DNA of 32,209 bases from an uncultured Candidatus Peribacteria bacterium (GTDB lineage: Bacteria; Patescibacteriota; Gracilibacteria; Peribacterales; Peribacteraceae): contig CAZUFJ010000018.1 in NCBI GenBank assembly GCA_964619805.1, forward strand, positions 1 to 32,209, read 5' to 3'. Below, in pieces: positions 1,509 to 18,467 of the stretch. Position 1 is the stretch's first letter; each line of letters starts with the position of its first letter. The position numbers were made by a program, and so were the translations under genes. A model generated the notes under the pieces. It ran no database searches and was not told the origin of the DNA. It saw nothing but the letters and a program-made list of their open reading frames with translations.

Positions 1509-3215
1509 ATGGGAATGATCTGTGCCAATTCCTGGTGTAAGCGGAGCTTCGATATTGCGGACGATGAAGTCGCTTTTTTGAAGAAGCTGACCTTTACGTT
1601 TGGTGATCGCACCATCGAGATGCCGCTCTCGGATCGGTGTCCTGATTGTCGGACACAAGCGCGTACTGCGCATCGTAATGAGCAGTTCCTCTATAAGACG
1701 CGCTCGAAGTTGTCCGGCAAGGAAATCGTCGCGCTCTATGCGCCAAATCCGGTCGCGGGTAAGGCGCTCCCTGTCTACAGCCAGGACGAATGGAGGAGCG
1801 ACGCGTGGGATCCGCTCTCGTATGGACGCGATGTTGATTTCACACGATCGTTCTTCGAACAATTTGCAGCATTGCAGCACGCGGTCCCGCGCATGGCGCT
1901 CATCACCATTGCGAATGAAAACTCGGATTTCTCGACGGGGACAGGCTACTGCAAAAATTGCTACCTGATCAATTCGTCCGAAAACTGCGAGGATTGTTAC
2001 TATGGAAAATTGCTCCAGAAATGCCGAGACTCGGTGGACTGCAGCTACCTCTATGACTCCGAGCTCTGCTACGAATGCTTCAGTGTCTTCGGGAGCCACA
2101 ATTGCCAGCATCTCTCCTTCAGCCAAGACTGTCAGGATTGCTTCTTCTCCTCCAACCTCAAATCCTGCAAGAACTGCTGCCTCTGCACCAACCTCGATCA
2201 CAAGGAGTACTACTTCCAGAATGAACCGCTCAGGAAAGAAGCATATGAGAAACGCCTGACAGAATTTCGCGGCAGCTTTACGCGCACGCAGCAAATGAAA
2301 GAACTCTGGAAGCGTGTGAGAATTTCCACAGTGAAAAAATACGCGAATATCATGAACTCCGAAGGCTGCACCGGTGATTATATCGAAAATTCGAAGAACT
2401 GTCTGGAGTGTTACGACGTCACGGACAGCCAAGATTGCAGGTCTGTGCAAGTCGGCGTCAATGTGAAGGATAACTATCACTGCTCAAACATGTATCTGAA
2501 ACCCGAGCTCTGCTACGAAACACTCGGTACGATCGAGGTGCACACTGTCGCATTCTGCCTCTACATCTTTCACTCGCAGCGGATGCTCTACTCGGAGTAC
2601 TGCTTCCATTGCAGCGACTGCTTCGGGTGCTCGGGGTTAACGCGCAAGAAGTTCTGCGTTTTCAATAAACAATATTCGAAGGAGGAATACGCATCGCTCG
2701 TCCCGAACATCATCGACCATATGAAAACCCCGTACCAGTCGCCTGCGGGCTCCGGTTCATTCGGCAAGTTCTTTCCTTCAGCCCTTTCGCCCTTCGGCTA
2801 CAACGAAACGCTGGCCTCGGAATATTTCCCCCTTAAGCGAGAGGAAGCGATCGCACGGGGATTCCATTGGCGCGAGAAAGATGCACGAGATTTTTTACCA
2901 CAAAAAGCGCCGGTTCCCGAGAGCATCGCGGAAGTGACGGATCAGTTACTTCAGGAAATATTCTCCTGCGAGGATTGCCGGAAGAATTTCCGCATCATCC
3001 CACAGGAGCTTGCGTTCTATCGTCGAAATTTAATTGCGATTCCGCACATATGCCCCGATTGCCGGAACAACGAGCGCATGCAGCAGCGAAATTCACGCAA
3101 GCTCCACGATCGCAATTGTTCGCATTGCGCGAAGTCGCTCCTCTCCACCTATCACCACGACCGTAAGGAAGTCATCCTCTGTGAAGAATGCTTTAGGTCC
3201 GCATTATACGCGTAG
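1509..3215 (+). CDS. Cys-rich zinc-ribbon repeat protein, paralog B
   Basis: 568-aa ORF starting 6 nt after paralog A. N-terminal CxxC..CPDCR..RNEQFLY module. Two Cys-rich blocks, each ending in a K(K/Q)(F/Y)C.(F/L)N.(Q/E)YS.EEY motif. C-terminal CEDCRKNFRIIPQELAFYR..CPDCR..RNSRKL.DRNCSHC..CEEC module. Clearly homologous to A and to 8541-10259. Confidence 0.85.
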   Translation: MGMICANSWCKRSFDIADDEVAFLKKLTFTFGDRTIEMPLSDRCPDCRTQARTAHRNEQFLYKTRSKLSGKEIVALYAPNPVAGKALPVYSQDEWRSDAWDPLSYGRDVDFTRSFFEQFAALQHAVPRMALITIANENSDFSTGTGYCKNCYLINSSENCEDCYYGKLLQKCRDSVDCSYLYDSELCYECFSVFGSHNCQHLSFSQDCQDCFFSSNLKSCKNCCLCTNLDHKEYYFQNEPLRKEAYEKRLTEFRGSFTRTQQMKELWKRVRISTVKKYANIMNSEGCTGDYIENSKNCLECYDVTDSQDCRSVQVGVNVKDNYHCSNMYLKPELCYETLGTIEVHTVAFCLYIFHSQRMLYSEYCFHCSDCFGCSGLTRKKFCVFNKQYSKEEYASLVPNIIDHMKTPYQSPAGSGSFGKFFPSALSPFGYNETLASEYFPLKREEAIARGFHWREKDARDFLPQKAPVPESIAEVTDQLLQEIFSCEDCRKNFRIIPQELAFYRRNLIAIPHICPDCRNNERMQQRNSRKLHDRNCSHCAKSLLSTYHHDRKEVILCEECFRSALYA

Positions 3216-3271: not shown

Positions 3272-5287
3272 ATGGCCGCAAGCGCCCTCCGCTATCTGCA
3301 CATCATGATTCCCCAGGGGGAACCCGAGGGGCAAAAGCGCGAATCGAAGTTTCAGGAGCTCCTCATCAACCTTCGCAACACGTTCACGGGGCGCAGGGTG
3401 TCGCTCGAGTATTTCGGCTACGCGCAGTACACGTATTTCTTTCTCGTGATCGAGGAGAGCCTGTTCGAGACGATCGAGGGATTGATCTACGCGACATTCC
3501 CGGAGGCGGAAATCAAAGAGGTGCAGGACTACACGGAGATGTTTGATCCGAAGCGACAGGCGATCGCCGGCGCGGAAATCACGCTCCATCATTCCGATAT
3601 TTACCCGATTAAGACGTTCGACATGTTCGAGGAAGACAGCGCCTCGCGCTTCTTCTCCGTCGTTTCCAAGATCGGCCCCCTCGATCAGGCGTGGGTGCAG
3701 ATCATCGCGGAGCCGCAGGATGACAGCGGATCGTATCATTTCCTTCGCAAGTGGCGGATTCGCATGGCAAATATGCGTCACTTTTTCAGCGTTCGCGACC
3801 GGATGCGCGAGGGCGGCCGCAAAGTCATCAACGCAATGCGGCATACGAAGGCGCATGAGAAAGCGGACGTGAAGCCGTTCACGGTGAGCATCCGTTGCGC
3901 GTACGTGTCGGATACCGACGAGAATGCGCGAAGGAAACTGGAGGCCGTCATCTCCAGCTTCTCGCAGTTCAATGACCGCGATATCAATGAATTTCACGGG
4001 CACGCATTGCATGGGAATGGATTCCTGGATCGGTACCGCGCACGCACGCACGCAACGACCTTTGTTCTGAACGCCAAAGAGGTCGCGACGCTCTACCATT
4101 TCCCAAATACCGATTACGTGTCACACATCGTGCATGTGCTCGCGCGTAAGAGCGACCCGCCGCAGGATCTGCCCCGCATCGGCCAGAGCGCGGTCTCCGG
4201 ATTCGGCGTCACGAACTATCACAACAGCCGCATTCCGTTCGGCATCCGACGCGAGGATCGCCGCCGCCACCTCTACACCGTCGGCAAATCCGGCGTGGGC
4301 AAAAGCAAGTTACTCGAGCTCCTCATCAACGAAGATATCAAGAACGGCGAAGGGTTCGCGGTCTTGGATCCGCACGGAGACTTGGTAGACAACGTGCTCC
4401 GGTTCATCCCGAAAGAACGTATAGACGACGTGGTGCTGTTCGACCCATCCGATACGAACTTTCCGATTGCGTTCAATCCGCTTGAGAAGGTTGATGACGC
4501 CTACAAGATGCAGGTCACGATCGGCTTCATCGATATCTTCAAGAAGCTCTTTGGCGGCAACTGGACGTACCGGTTGGAGCACGTGCTTCGGTACACGACG
4601 CTCGCGCTCCTCGATAGCCCGAATACGACGGTGCTCTCGATCCTCAAAATGTTGACGGACAAAAACTACCGCCAGAAGATCGTCGCACGCATTCAGGATT
4701 CGGTGGTGAAGAGTTTCTGGGTGTCGGAATTCGCAGCATGGTCCGAGAAATTCGATGCAGAGGCGATCACGCCGCTCCTCAACAAGGTCGGCCAGTTCGT
4801 CGCGACGAACATGATCCGCAATATCGTCGGCCAGTCGAAAACGAAATTCGACATTCGGGACATCATGGACCAGAAGAAGATCCTCCTGATGAAAGTTTCG
4901 AAGGGCTTGCTCGGCGAGGAAAATTCCTCGCTCATCGGTTCGATGGTGATCACGAAGCTCTATCAGGCGGCGATGAGCCGCGCCGCGATCGCGGAGGATA
5001 AGCGCACGGATTTTTATTTCTACATCGATGAGTTCCAGAACTTCGCGACCGATACGTTTGCCGAGATCCTCTCGGAGTCCCGTAAGTACCGCCTCTCCCT
5101 CACGATCGCGCACCAGTACATGGGGCAGCTCAAGGATGTCGTGCGCAAGACCGTGTTCGGCAACGTCGGCTCCATCGTGAGCTTCCGCGTCGGCGCGGAG
5201 GATGCGACGATCCTGGAGGGCGAATACAATCCCGTCTTCAAGGAGCGCGACATCATCAACCTGGGCGTCCGCGAGTTCTACATCTAG
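3272..5287 (+). CDS. VirD4/TraD-like (type IV coupling protein family) P-loop ATPase, soluble form, ended by an in-frame TAG
   Basis: Walker A is TVGKSGVGKSKL. Walker B-like is FYFYIDEFQNF. TIAHQYMGQL is typical of TraD/TraG/VirD4-type NTPases. The roughly 330-aa N-terminal region has no obvious TM helices. A TATAAT box at 3258-3263 lies 8 nt before the ATG. The stop TAG at 5285-5287 is followed directly by an in-frame ATG. Confidence 0.85.
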   Translation: MAASALRYLHIMIPQGEPEGQKRESKFQELLINLRNTFTGRRVSLEYFGYAQYTYFFLVIEESLFETIEGLIYATFPEAEIKEVQDYTEMFDPKRQAIAGAEITLHHSDIYPIKTFDMFEEDSASRFFSVVSKIGPLDQAWVQIIAEPQDDSGSYHFLRKWRIRMANMRHFFSVRDRMREGGRKVINAMRHTKAHEKADVKPFTVSIRCAYVSDTDENARRKLEAVISSFSQFNDRDINEFHGHALHGNGFLDRYRARTHATTFVLNAKEVATLYHFPNTDYVSHIVHVLARKSDPPQDLPRIGQSAVSGFGVTNYHNSRIPFGIRREDRRRHLYTVGKSGVGKSKLLELLINEDIKNGEGFAVLDPHGDLVDNVLRFIPKERIDDVVLFDPSDTNFPIAFNPLEKVDDAYKMQVTIGFIDIFKKLFGGNWTYRLEHVLRYTTLALLDSPNTTVLSILKMLTDKNYRQKIVARIQDSVVKSFWVSEFAAWSEKFDAEAITPLLNKVGQFVATNMIRNIVGQSKTKFDIRDIMDQKKILLMKVSKGLLGEENSSLIGSMVITKLYQAAMSRAAIAEDKRTDFYFYIDEFQNFATDTFAEILSESRKYRLSLTIAHQYMGQLKDVVRKTVFGNVGSIVSFRVGAEDATILEGEYNPVFKERDIINLGVREFYI

Positions 5288-5518
5288 ATGTCCGTGAACG
5301 GCGAAGTGCGCGAAGCGTTTTCTGGACGCACGCTCGATGTGCCGCACGTCACGGAGGATCACACGCAGGAGATCATTGCCGCGTCGCGGGCGAAGTATTG
5401 TGAGCCGCGTGCGAATGTAGAGGAGATGCTGAAGCGCTGGGATGAAGCTTCGTCGGCGCCGCCAGACCCGGGTGAAATTGCGGAGATCGAGGAGAAGTTT
5501 GAAGAGCCACTCCTGTAG
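5288..5518 (+). CDS. Detached C-terminal segment of the VirD4/TraD-like ATPase (or a separate 76-aa coupled ORF)
   Basis: Same frame as 3272-5287, with zero spacing (TAGATG). From memory of related proteins, ..EFYI*MSVNGEVREAFSGRTL.. looks like one continuous conserved block. Acidic tail EIAEIEEKFEEPLL. Confidence 0.55.
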   Translation: MSVNGEVREAFSGRTLDVPHVTEDHTQEIIAASRAKYCEPRANVEEMLKRWDEASSAPPDPGEIAEIEEKFEEPLL

Positions 5519-8395: not shown

Positions 8396-8502
8396 TTCAC
8401 CTCACGCTCGGGGCGTAATTTCGATAATGCTGATGATGGAGCGGCTTGCTCGCACGCGGGAAGCCTAGGCGCGTCTTTTATGTAGTCAAGAAAATAGGTG
8501 CA

Positions 8503-10259: not shown

Positions 10260-10283
10260 GCTCGGATTTTACTACGAATTCCT

Positions 10284-10359
10284 TGGTCGGGACGAGAGGA
10301 CTTGAACCTCCGGCCTCACGGTCCCGAACCGTGCGCTCTACCAACTGAGCTACGTCCCG
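10284..10359 (-). tRNA. tRNA-Pro (anticodon CGG), CCA encoded
   Basis: The minus strand reads CGGGACG-TA-GCTC-AGTTGGTA-GAGC-G-CACGG-TTCGGGA-CCGTG-AGGCC-GGAGG-TTCAAGT-CCTCT-CGTCCCG-A-CCA. Full cloverleaf, and the anticodon loop is TT-CGG-GA. Confidence 0.95.
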
Positions 10360-10572
10360 AATACGTTTGGTGATGGAAAGATCAGATCGAGGGCGAGCGT
10401 GCGATTCTTTATGACGCGCCGCAAGCGGCGCTAGGCAACTGAGCTACGTCCCGATACGTTTGGTGATGGAAAGATCAGATCGAGGGCGAGCGTGCGATTC
10501 TTTATGACGCGCCGCAAGCGGCGCTAGGCAACTGAGCTACGTCCCGAATACGTTTGGTGATGGAATGATCAG
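10342..10572. repeat. Tandem repeat, about 2.5 copies of 93-94 bp, containing the 5' 18 nt of tRNA-Pro plus about 75 nt of its upstream leader
   Basis: CAACTGAGCTACGTCCCGA starts at 10342, 10436 and 10529. Copies 1 and 2 are identical except for one A (CCCGAATACG versus CCCGATACG). The third copy diverges after GTGATGGAA near 10565. Each unit carries a GCGCCGC-AA-GCGGCGC hairpin. Confidence 0.95.
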
Positions 10573-10681: not shown

Positions 10682-11239
10682 ATGCAACGCAAGTACATCT
10701 GGATCGGTATTGCCGTCCTTCTCGGTGTCTGGCTCTGGTCGAGCTACAACGGACTCGTACTGGGGCGAGGCCGAGTGGCTGCATCGTGGGCGCAGGTGGA
10801 GACGCAGTATCAGAGGCGCTTTGATTTGGTGCCCAATCTCGTAAGTACCGTGAAGGGCGCGGCGAATTTTGAGCAGGAGACGCTTCTTCAAGTGACGGAG
10901 GCACGCACGAAGTGGCTTTCGAACTCAAGCCCGACGTCACGGGTGGATGCGGCGCAGCAGCTCGATGGTGCGCTCTCACGCTTACTCGTCACGGTGGAGG
11001 CGTACCCGCAGCTCCAGGCGACGCAGGCATTCCGTGATCTCATGACGCAGCTCGAGGGAACCGAAAACCGCATCGGAACCGCGAGGCGCGATTACAACCT
11101 GGCGATTCTGAGTTACAACTACCGTGTCCGACGGTTCCCGACGAACATCGTTGCGAAGGTGTTTGGCTTCACCGGCGAAAAACTGTTCGGGAGCGTCGAG
11201 GGATCCGAAAATGCGCCGACCGTTGATTTCGGAAGCTGA
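10682..11239 (+). CDS. lemA: LemA family protein
   Basis: N-terminal TM helix (IWIGIAVLLGVWLW). LemA signature QVETQYQRRFDLVPNLVSTVKGAANFEQETL..EAYPQL.A...F..L...LEGTENRI...R.DYN. I prefer the start at ATG 10682 over 10628. Confidence 0.9.
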   Translation: MQRKYIWIGIAVLLGVWLWSSYNGLVLGRGRVAASWAQVETQYQRRFDLVPNLVSTVKGAANFEQETLLQVTEARTKWLSNSSPTSRVDAAQQLDGALSRLLVTVEAYPQLQATQAFRDLMTQLEGTENRIGTARRDYNLAILSYNYRVRRFPTNIVAKVFGFTGEKLFGSVEGSENAPTVDFGS

Positions 11240-17433: not shown

Positions 17434-18467
17434 AGATCGGCCTCGTCACGTGGGATTACGATCCGCCGTGCGGCGGGCTCGGGCGCGCGATGCAGCGATT
17501 GCGCGATGATCTCCGATCGCTTGGTCACGAAGGTTCCTTGTTCCTCCCAAATCCCGGATCTTCACGTTTCAAATTTTGTGTAAAGATTCACCGCGAGCTT
17601 CCGCCGTGGATTGCAAAGGAGAGCATTGCGCTCCTGCTTTTCCCCGTCGGACCTGGTGGCGTTTTCCTCTTGCGGAAGCCAAAAGTTCCTTCCATCGCCC
17701 TCTGCTATCACGCGTACGCGCAGCAGGCCACGTTCGTTCCCGGCGAGTGGTGGAAACGGATCTTCGTTCCGTTTGAGCGCCGCACATTTCGCACGGCAGA
17801 TCACATCGCCGTGTATGCGCCGGATACGAAGCAAGCGCTTTGCGATGCCTACAGAACTCCAGAACATCACATCACACTCCTGACGCAGGGGTTCGATGCG
17901 GATGCTTGGAGTACCTTCGCAGCTCAGAAGGAAGGAGGTCTGTGCGTGTGTGTTGCACGTTTGGATCCACGCAAAGGCGTGAAGGAGCTCCTCGGCGTAT
18001 GGCGGCAAGTCGAGGAGCGTTCATCCAAGGCGAAGCTCGTCATCGTCGGTGATGGGAAAGAGCGACAGATCGTGGATGCGTTGATTCGAGGATGCGCGCG
18101 TGTGCGTCGAATCACGAGTCTCTCACTCACAGAGCTTCGTGCACTCGTATCCTCTGCAGAACTTGCGCTCTGCCCTTCGACGCTCGAGGGATTCGGGCTC
18201 GCCGCGGCGGAAGCGCTGGCCGCTGGAACGCCCGTGATCGCGCGCGACGCTCCGGGGGTTCGATCGCTTGTGAAGGATGGAACGACAGGGTGTATCGTTC
18301 CGATGTGCCGCTTTCCCGAGAGGATTCTGGAGCTTCTGAATGATGCGAAGCTCCTTGCGGAATTTTCAACCACTGCACGAATGGATATGCACAACCGGTT
18401 TGATCCGATGGTTTCGCAAAGACAGTTACAAGATCTCCTGCAAACGGTATGCTCGGGCACAGTATGA
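17430..18467 (+). CDS. Glycosyltransferase family 4 (second copy)
   Basis: MKIGLVTWDYDPPCGGLG, then LEGFGLAAAEALAAGTPVIARDAPGVRSLV. ATGA overlap with the upstream GT (17430-17433). Confidence 0.8.
   Translation: MKIGLVTWDYDPPCGGLGRAMQRLRDDLRSLGHEGSLFLPNPGSSRFKFCVKIHRELPPWIAKESIALLLFPVGPGGVFLLRKPKVPSIALCYHAYAQQATFVPGEWWKRIFVPFERRTFRTADHIAVYAPDTKQALCDAYRTPEHHITLLTQGFDADAWSTFAAQKEGGLCVCVARLDPRKGVKELLGVWRQVEERSSKAKLVIVGDGKERQIVDALIRGCARVRRITSLSLTELRALVSSAELALCPSTLEGFGLAAAEALAAGTPVIARDAPGVRSLVKDGTTGCIVPMCRFPERILELLNDAKLLAEFSTTARMDMHNRFDPMVSQRQLQDLLQTVCSGTV

Follow-up and report, generated by a model that had tools for sequence, protein, structure and literature searches.

The window, by which we mean the whole 32,209-nt stretch analysed here, carries a conserved ATPase gene that is interrupted close to its 3' end. 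A 671-aa ORF at 3272-5287 on the + strand has the terminal residues GVREFYI followed by TAG at 5285-5287, and an ATG at 5288, in the same frame as the upstream ORF, opens a 76-codon ORF (MSVNGEVREAFSGRTL...) with its own TAG stop at 5516-5518. These ORF ends and the shared frame, reported in a first-pass annotation of the same DNA, were confirmed from coordinates and translation. Judged by comparison with their relatives, the two ORFs are one gene encoding a soluble VirD4/TraD-like ATPase of Peregrinibacteria, which in its uninterrupted form would normally be one 748-codon ORF. An exact-product look-up returned no record with a protein identical to the 671-aa product. The features of the locus are as follows.

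3272..5284, + strand: first 671 codons of the VirD4/TraD-like (T4SS coupling-protein-like) ATPase, predicted from Pfam matches, motif columns and Foldseek
4283-4306, + strand: Walker A GKSGVGKS, residues 338-345
5012-5044, + strand: Walker B region FYFYIDEFQNF, from invariant motif columns
5280..5291, no strand: perfect 12-bp palindrome ACATCT/AGATGT, present only owing to the T at 5285
5285..5287, + strand: in-frame TAG replacing an invariant Lys codon (A-to-T at 5285, AAG to TAG), from the homologue alignment
5288..5515, + strand: last 76 codons of the ATPase gene, intact; the homologue alignment reaches their last residue
5516..5518, + strand: true terminator of the ATPase gene, also TAG, coinciding with the C-terminus of the homologues

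Like the VirD4, TraD and TrwB coupling proteins, the ATPase matches T4SS-DNA_transf, TrwB_AAD_bind and TraG-D_C above the gathering cut-offs (PF02534, 33.2 bits against 20.1; PF10412, 29.1 against 20.5; PF12696, 25.1 against 22) and possesses Walker A and Walker B motifs, of which GKSGVGKS and the DEF of FYFYIDEFQNF are invariant in 35 sequences. The NCBIfam equivalogs score far under their cut-offs (CD1115, 58.8 against 250; TraD, 46 against 366), and a PDB sequence-profile search with the ATPase gave no matches. In Foldseek the predicted model resembles TrwB, Cagbeta and DotL and also TrwK/VirB4 and HerA (VirB4/TrwK, E 2.6e-11; TrwB, E 2.6e-07, TMt 0.48), the query model being of moderate quality with a mean pLDDT of 69. 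The pLDDT is 81-94 over residues 690-730 and below 50 in the junction region, 624-690. The 76-codon tail comprises the conserved block MSVNGEVREAFSGRTL, a helical module (residues ~695-740) that is modelled with confidence, and the terminal motif EKFEEPLL.

The ATPase departs from the coupling proteins at its N-terminus and apparently also in its surroundings. A Kyte-Doolittle window of 19 residues usually reaches about 1.6 in a transmembrane helix; the highest such window here is 1.16, and in place of an N-terminal membrane anchor the predicted model has a soluble alpha/beta domain of ~280 residues. The gene adjoins genes for Cys-rich zinc-ribbon proteins rather than virB genes or a relaxase; the neighbours are Cys-rich proteins with weak zf_Tbcl_2 matches, an RskA_C-like protein and a LeuA-like gene. 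PF03135 had no match in the 84%-complete genome, although this model may miss a VirB4 of the monoderm type. Orphan T4CP homologues in Patescibacteria may be exapted for another function (PMC12102498).

The first-pass annotation had described a C-terminal block as continuous in related proteins, had read the TAG as a sense codon altered by a single substitution, and had proposed an alignment of homologues as a check. The 120 best homologues support both ideas. All are continuous, most being 744-751 aa long with a few records partial or longer, and identity among them is 77-87% across the last 300 residues. Homology is in frame over the 671 codons 5' of the stop and over the 76 codons 3' of it, up to the last residue of the homologues, and a resemblance held in frame on both sides exceeds chance. 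The consensus across the junction is REFY[ITV]-K-M-S-V-x-G-E-x-R-E-A-F-S-G-x-T-L. The relatives continue through 5285-5287 with Lys in 120/120, encoded by AAA 61 times and by AAG 59 times, and the following column is Met in every one of the 120. The ancestral codon is therefore Lys (AAG or AAA), changed by A-to-T at 5285. Homologues that terminate at this position ahead of a separate small gene, a pattern the annotation had set against its own reading, were not found; all are single ORFs.

In the region downstream of the stop, homologue tails are 75-76 residues long in 109 of 120, K672 is invariant, as is much of the tail (invariant columns M673...P746), and the mean column identity of 79% across genera indicates that the ATPase gene is under strong purifying selection. 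All 76 codons after the TAG are open and retain the conserved residues. Since the tail is undecayed, the change is either very recent or not real.

The stop is also confined to this assembly. A pattern with TAR at this codon had no matches in 241 million metagenome records and 32 million genome contigs, whereas the AAR (Lys) version of the same pattern had at least 120 matches in the two collections. In 200 genomes of the order there are approximately 70 full-length orthologues, none with a stop here, and the genome search found TAG at this codon solely in the MAG's own genome. A close orthologue is absent from both same-genus genomes. One other MAG (G111) has a TGA in the orthologue at residue ~18, a different site.

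A stop that replaces Lys within an intact gene could signify that UAG is decoded, by a suppressor tRNA, as pyrrolysine or by stimulated read-through, and pyrrolysine is itself a Lys derivative. The genome, however, contains no CUA anticodon among its 39 tRNAs, its best PylS match is 22 bits against a cut-off of 178, and release factor RF1 is present (461.8 bits against a cut-off of 423). These searches cover the ~84% of the genome that the MAG represents, so that the absence of the machinery is not absolute. TAG is an ordinary terminator, ending ~25% of all frames in the genome with 250 codons or more (160 of 646) and this very ATPase gene 77 codons downstream; the TAG terminators at 3215 and 5518 cited in the first-pass annotation are both in the ORF list. 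Global recoding was rejected on the tRNAs, PylS, RF1 and TAG usage, in agreement with the first-pass annotation. In a MAG-wide scan for in-frame stops, the output of a first codon model consisted largely of antisense shadow frames; a second codon model, together with reading of the junctions, left two true cases within conserved domains, this TAG and one TGA. Other candidates from the scan proved to be ordinary adjacent genes (dnaB>mraY, pyrB>pyrC, rplW>rplB, rpsM>rpsK). With a single in-domain TAG in the MAG, a TGA as the other in-domain stop, and no orthologue with a stop at this codon, programmed read-through or recoding is close to refuted and is now barely conceivable.

The ATG that directly abuts the stop invites another explanation, in which UAG termination is coupled to AUG reinitiation (UAGAUG) and a separate 76-aa tail reassembles with a 671-aa motor. 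Both parts are intact, and a start directly after a stop occurs naturally at 27 of 645 long ORFs, one case being the TAGATG after pgk on contig C62. The Met is nevertheless invariant in the continuous protein, so the ATG is merely the codon of conserved Met673 and its adjacency to the stop follows by accident from the K-M dipeptide. None of the relatives shows a split at this point, and a split private to one MAG has had no time for adaptation. The absence of an SD-like motif before 5288 is a weak objection in a genome where such motifs are rare: SD-like 4-mers precede 11% of long ORFs against a genomic background of 16% and are thus no commoner there, which makes the missing motif uninformative. 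We regard a functional two-piece gene as very improbable. Since no relative shares the stop, programmed read-through and an evolved split both fail, and these two of the originally listed explanations are effectively excluded.

A feature additional to those of the first-pass annotation is that the base which creates the stop also completes a 12-bp palindrome. The T at 5285 converts the ancestral quasi-palindrome ACATCAAGATGT into the perfect palindrome ACATCTAGATGT, in which the new T pairs with A 5286 of the opposite arm; T gives arms of 6, and A, C and G would give arms of 2, 1 and 2, respectively. Among the 48,290 nonsense substitutions possible in the genome, arms of at least 5 arise in 1.13% and arms of at least 6 in 0.33%. 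The completion of imperfect inverted repeats is a well-documented mutation mechanism in vivo (PMC7202029). The change at 5285 resembles the quasi-palindrome template-switch mutations described by the Ripley model and in the E. coli thyA and lacZ reporters (PMC7202029) in that a substitution perfects an imperfect inverted repeat, the introduced base being complementary to its partner in the other arm; it differs in having short arms, which grow from 4-5 bp to 5-6 bp with the change, and in being known from sequence alone. By this mechanism, template switching would 'complete' the imperfect repeat, the change of A to T at 5285 being templated by the other arm.

Artefacts of library preparation at inverted repeats and palindromes are likewise documented (PDSM model, PMC10908179; enzymatic fragmentation, PMC6941819 and PMC7531576). 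These too appear as apparent SNVs at the exact mismatched positions of palindromic sequences and, being unselected, can put stops into essential or conserved genes. Unlike the base at 5285, they are low-frequency events in deep human data, and their entry into a consensus needs very low local depth.

The one other in-domain stop of the MAG lies in the WbuX gene on contig C74; it is a TGA and has the same footprint. TIGR03573 matches WbuX in a single stretch (residues 1-342) across the TGA, and relatives carry Tyr or Cys at the position. The TGA completes the inverted repeat CGATT-G-AATCG, extending the arms from at most 3 to 5. Both in-domain stops (2/2) thus complete inverted repeats, with a joint chance of ~1.3e-4 in what is a post hoc test, while none of 13 ordinary SNP sites does so in its derived allele. 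Inverted repeats are not in general over-represented in the MAG, at 1.39% compared with 1.33% in relatives. A putative third completion, at 17469, was rejected: there the ancestral allele is the palindromic one (Arg), and the allele of the MAG and run X2 disrupts the palindrome. C74 was also considered as a foreign contig reading TGA as Gly and rejected, its GC (0.549) and tetranucleotide profile being typical of the MAG and its relatives having Tyr or Cys, not Gly.

At the C74 stop the contigs of two public runs disagree with the MAG and apparently read a non-stop base. The base in the runs was inferred from alignment geometry, two contigs being clipped at L127:944 and a third having one mismatch within 940-944. 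Like other private internal-stop 'pseudogenes' of MAGs, the two stops are each the only in-frame interruption of a conserved gene that is otherwise intact, they come from just one MAG of low coverage, their types are mixed (TAG here, TGA on C74), and no recoding machinery was found. They differ from such pseudogenes in that both carry the inverted-repeat completion footprint, a sign of one specific mechanism, of error or of mutation, and not of random base-call noise.

The sequencing runs, examined as Logan contigs of sister populations, are less direct at the ATPase. Three runs contain the strain (76%, 43% and 12% of words), at a depth of ~2-10x. The strain's own contigs break across 4835-5374, none of the contigs in four runs is at least 94% alike across 5250-5330, and a 61-nt query spanning the site (4 sampled words) matched no run; every run contig that covers 5285 belongs to a diverged relative. 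It is plausible that local depth, at 2-10x, was low enough for an artefact to enter the consensus at 5285. The coding differences between MAG and runs are 6 synonymous, 3 nonsynonymous and 1 nonsense, and most look natural. The MAG has alleles missing from both runs X1 and X2, and its source is therefore another population, where the stop could be real. Two explanations named in the first-pass annotation, a recent nonsense mutation and an error of sequencing or assembly, still stand side by side; the runs at 5285 do not separate them.

To judge from these comparisons, the TAG is an isolated, unprogrammed point change of quasi-palindrome type, private to this MAG. It may have been made in vivo by template switching and, as a real recent nonsense mutation, have reached fixation or high frequency in the source population. 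The cell would then make a 671-aa ATPase without the conserved 76-aa tail, the product of a young pseudogene or crippled allele, and near-cognate read-through of UAG would yield traces of the full-length protein. The footprint fits the in-vivo mechanism (PMC7202029), the MAG-private differences are mostly natural polymorphism, and a very young lesion would show an intact tail. Loss could be tolerated as well, given four paralogues in the genome, a patchy orthologue distribution, and the report that a T4CP homologue is non-essential in a cultured Saccharibacterium (PMC12102498). Against this stand the strong purifying selection on the gene, the invariance of K672 and much of the tail, the lack of an interruption here in any of the other genomes examined, and the contradiction of the MAG's only comparable stop by two runs. 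Moreover, two nonsense alleles that lie in conserved genes and share one rare footprint, against none in 13 ordinary SNPs, are better explained by changes that escaped selection than by changes that went through it. We consider a real, established nonsense mutation possible but unlikely. Only an outside chance attaches to a bolder version, in which the stop is real, arose by template switching in vivo and is tolerated, the ATPase working as a 671-aa motor with a reinitiated 76-aa tail that has a docking-like EKFEEPL end. In a weaker version, quasi-palindrome mutagenesis may be a notable way in which genes become inactivated in repair-poor CPR bacteria.

On balance, the stop is probably an artefact or an unfixed variant and not part of the organism's working gene. 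It could have arisen at the palindromic site as an artefact of the library, of sequencing or of the consensus, or it could represent a rare haplotype sampled by chance in a low-depth consensus; in either case the real population would make the full-length ATPase. We infer this, rather than a fixed mutation, from the confinement of the stop to this assembly, the undecayed tail, the footprint common to both in-domain stops, the runs that contradict the C74 stop, the low strain depth and the published class of artefacts. Counting against it are the mostly natural character of the differences between MAG and runs, the tolerable loss of the gene, and a mechanism that is also known in vivo.

Annotation pipelines would call a pseudogene or two genes in this low-coverage MAG record. 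Completion of an inverted repeat is a cheap flag for suspect nonsense codons in MAGs that needs nothing beyond the sequence, applies alike to changes of in-vivo and library origin, and may be reusable. The locus gives no sign of a new mode of decoding or gene organisation, and the truncation is no basis for inferring the loss of a VirD4-like system in the lineage. For the biology of these bacteria the interruption is of little consequence, and the gene family is intact everywhere else.

The gene under study, a VirD4/TraD-like ATPase at 3272-5518 (+), is interrupted at 5285-5287, where the window reads GGC GTC CGC GAG TTC TAC ATC TAG ATG TCC GTG AAC GGC and the coding sequence is divided as follows:

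3272-5287, + strand: ORF of 671 aa, ending at the TAG at 5285-5287
5288-5518, + strand: ORF of 76 codons, opening at the ATG at 5288 in the same frame and ending at the TAG at 5516-5518

These coordinates and the junction sequence bear out the first-pass annotation, which had described an in-frame TAG with an adjoining ATG splitting the ATPase ORF. Its further proposal, that one protein has been cut by a single substitution of a sense codon, agrees with an alignment of the best 120 database relatives, all from Peregrinibacteria/Peribacteraceae, every one of which reads across the TAG position. These relatives are unbroken, mostly 744-751 aa long and 77-87% identical across the last 300 residues; the TAG column holds Lys in 120/120 and the following column Met in 120/120, between nearly invariant flanks (DIINLGVREFY and MSVxGExREAFSGxTL). 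Since the Lys codon is AAA in 61 relatives and AAG in 59, TAG lies one A-to-T change away from AAG. The 76-residue tail is conserved among homologues through its last residue (...EKFEEPLI), and the second TAG, at 5516, coincides exactly with their C-terminus. Judged from the aligned sequences, the ATG right after the stop is the conserved Met codon rather than a designed restart.

The 671-aa part scores above the Pfam gathering thresholds for T4SS-DNA_transf (PF02534), TrwB_AAD_bind (PF10412) and TraG-D_C (PF12696), the 76-aa part alone has no Pfam match, and NCBIfam yields sub-threshold matches only, to TraD and CD1115-type coupling proteins. The ATPase carries Walker A (GKSGVGKS) and Walker B (DEF) motifs and no hydrophobic segment fit for a membrane anchor, its AlphaFold model (mean pLDDT 69) is similar to VirB4/TrwK, TrwB, Cagbeta, DotL and HerA, and the products of the neighbouring genes are rich in Cys, with weak matches to treble-clef zinc fingers. 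On this evidence the gene encodes a soluble ATPase, VirD4/TraD-like and of the Patescibacteria kind, which is multi-copy, mostly unlinked to virB4 and possibly exapted for another role (PMC12102498); this genome holds four further paralogues at 30-44% identity. The tail (5288-5515, residues 673-748) ends in a near-invariant acidic motif, E-x-F-E-E-P-L-[IL], in which F743, E745 and P746 are invariant, just after a confidently modelled three-helix module (~695-740), and this end may serve to dock a partner.

A degenerate DNA pattern combining the conserved flanks with TAR at the Lys codon had no match in the metagenome and species-representative genome collections; the identical pattern with AAR was found in at least 120 genomes. 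When 200 genomes of the order were searched in six frames, with read-through stops counted, ~70 full-length orthologues (63-79% identity) were recovered, and the only interrupted ones are those of the window's own genome (one TAG) and of one other MAG of the family, G111 (G111:C2:22520-24730, L141), where a TGA falls at a different site, residue ~18 of a VirD4-like gene with a garbled 5' end. With no TAR match and no other orthologue stopped at this codon, the TAG at 5285-5287 is private to this assembly. A sporadic single in-frame TAA also occurs in a conserved GT4 homologue of another family MAG (G097:C4:29165-30235, L143), and it and the G111 stop give a rough base rate of such lesions in MAG records of the same family. 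The orthologue is patchily spread despite its very high conservation: the ~70 genomes that hold it are scattered over many genera, the two genomes of the same genus have only relatives at 44-54% identity, and a ~900-aa paralogue at ~44% identity is also present in most genomes of the order.

Genome-wide, TAG ends 160/646 frames of at least 250 codons, this gene included; RF1, the reader of UAG, is present above its cut-off, none of 39 tRNAs (ARAGORN) has a CUA anticodon, and PylS is absent, its best matches (22 and 18 bits against a 178-bit cut-off) being generic synthetase cross-hits. TAG is thus an ordinary terminator here, and global recoding was rightly set aside at the outset. Programmed UAG read-through or recoding is very improbable, as the stop is private and the decoding machinery absent; an evolved split with reinitiation at ATG 5288 is equally hard to credit, given the private stop and the ancestral Met codon. 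Of the four explanations first offered, then, mutation and error survive, and the private stop leaves read-through and a genuine split little room. The MAG was scanned for stops with coding-like sequence in the same frame on both flanks, and the junctions were then read; only two stops lie inside conserved domains, the ATPase TAG and the following:

Contig C74 of the same MAG, L127:944-946 (locus coordinates), - strand (TCA on +): TGA in an N-acetyl sugar amidotransferase gene (WbuX, TIGR03573), an in-domain stop

A single TIGR03573 match (residues 1-342) runs across this TGA without a break, the residue in relatives is Tyr or Cys and never a stop, and the composition of C74 is typical of this MAG. 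Such a pair, a TAG and a TGA, fits sporadic point lesions and not a change of code. Stop-start junctions are natural in this genome: a start codon directly follows the stop in 27/645 long ORFs, and the pgk/next-gene junction on contig C62 (position 404, +) is also TAGATG. SD-like 4-mers occur at -18..-4 of first-ATG starts, which are crude calls, in 11% of long ORFs versus 16% of random 15-nt windows, and Shine-Dalgarno initiation may be of little importance in this lineage.

Read evidence was drawn from Logan contigs of three public runs holding the strain (X1, X2 and X3; word depth ~2-10), in which 76%, 43% and 12%, respectively, of the words from the first 10 kb occur. Across 4835-5374, the most conserved stretch of the ATPase gene, contigs of the strain itself are interrupted; words there are common to more abundant co-occurring relatives. 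No contig at least 94% alike spans 5250-5330 in four runs, and the contigs that do cover 5285 all belong to diverged relatives and have A there; the runs thus neither support nor contradict the T. At the C74 stop, one X2 contig ends at L127:943 with one unaligned letter, one X1 contig begins at L127:945 with two, and a 404-nt X2 contig mismatches at three positions over 940-1300 and at two over 945-1300, which together assign a mismatch to L127:944, the third position of the TGA. By this alignment geometry the codon in the sister populations appears to be TGB (B being C, G or T), for Cys or Trp and not a stop.

The runs are not the source of the MAG, since its bases at 4615, 10124 and L127:974 are missing from both X1 and X2; at other variable sites it matches one and differs from the other. 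Of the MAG-versus-run differences, L127:974 included, 6 are synonymous, 3 are nonsynonymous and 1 is nonsense, while 5 could be assigned to no gene (24742 and four intergenic sites at 8422-8434). The synonymous share is far above random-error expectation, which makes the MAG a sister haplotype that differs naturally at ~0.5 sites per kb. The run contigs also show a G inserted after 10340 and back-joints at ~10290-10354, both in the tRNA-Pro head and leader repeat region (10283-10360), where repeat copy number or structure reflects a population difference or mis-assembly, and a 183-nt skip at 10813-10997.

The T at 5285 makes 5280-5291 a perfect 12-bp palindrome (ACATCT|AGATGT), the ancestral A leaving a quasi-palindrome with an arm of 2; the stop-making A on C74 likewise gives CGATT-G-AATCG, with 5-nt arms where any other base gives at most 3. 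Among all possible nonsense-creating substitutions in the genome's long ORFs (n=48,290), 1.13% complete an inverted repeat with arms of at least 5 and 0.33% with arms of at least 6. That both of two stops do so has a post hoc probability of ~1e-4, an excess that is strong but not formal. The derived allele completes an inverted repeat at 0/13 ordinary SNP sites, and genome-wide inverted-repeat density is no higher than in relatives (1.39% vs 1.33%). Site 17469, within the PP[RK]GGLG motif at the N-terminal end of a GT4-like glycosyltransferase, was rejected as a further completion: the MAG and X2 have TGC (Cys), X1 has CGC (Arg) and relatives Arg or Lys, and it is the ancestral allele that makes 17462-17475 a perfect 14-bp palindrome (CCGCCGCGCGGCGG), broken in the MAG and X2. 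Completed quasi-palindromes are the classical mark left by template switching, documented both in vivo (PMC7202029) and in library preparation, where they arise as artefacts at palindromes and inverted repeats (PMC10908179, PMC6941819, PMC7531576).

The evidence bearing on an artefact or unfixed variant versus a fixed mutation is indirect, and we consider the former the probable origin of the TAG. The gene is under strong purifying selection in all other genomes; this, the undecayed tail and the very low depth fit such an origin, as does the apparent contradiction of the MAG's sole comparable stop by two sister populations, and the footprint sits on just those two changes that ought to have been purged by selection. 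A real, fixed recent mutation seems rather unlikely, in view of the same selection and the contradicted C74 stop, even though MAG-private differences are mostly natural, the in-vivo mechanism is well known, and paralogues and patchy orthologue distribution make loss of the gene tolerable.

Neither the gene family nor decoding gains a new feature here: in this low-coverage MAG the TAG is a nonsense codon of the ordinary, isolated point type, and what is instructive about it is its footprint, whether mutational or artefactual. Were the stop real, the cell would make a 671-aa motor lacking the conserved tail, with low-level near-cognate UAG read-through or reinitiation at the adjoining AUG possible.
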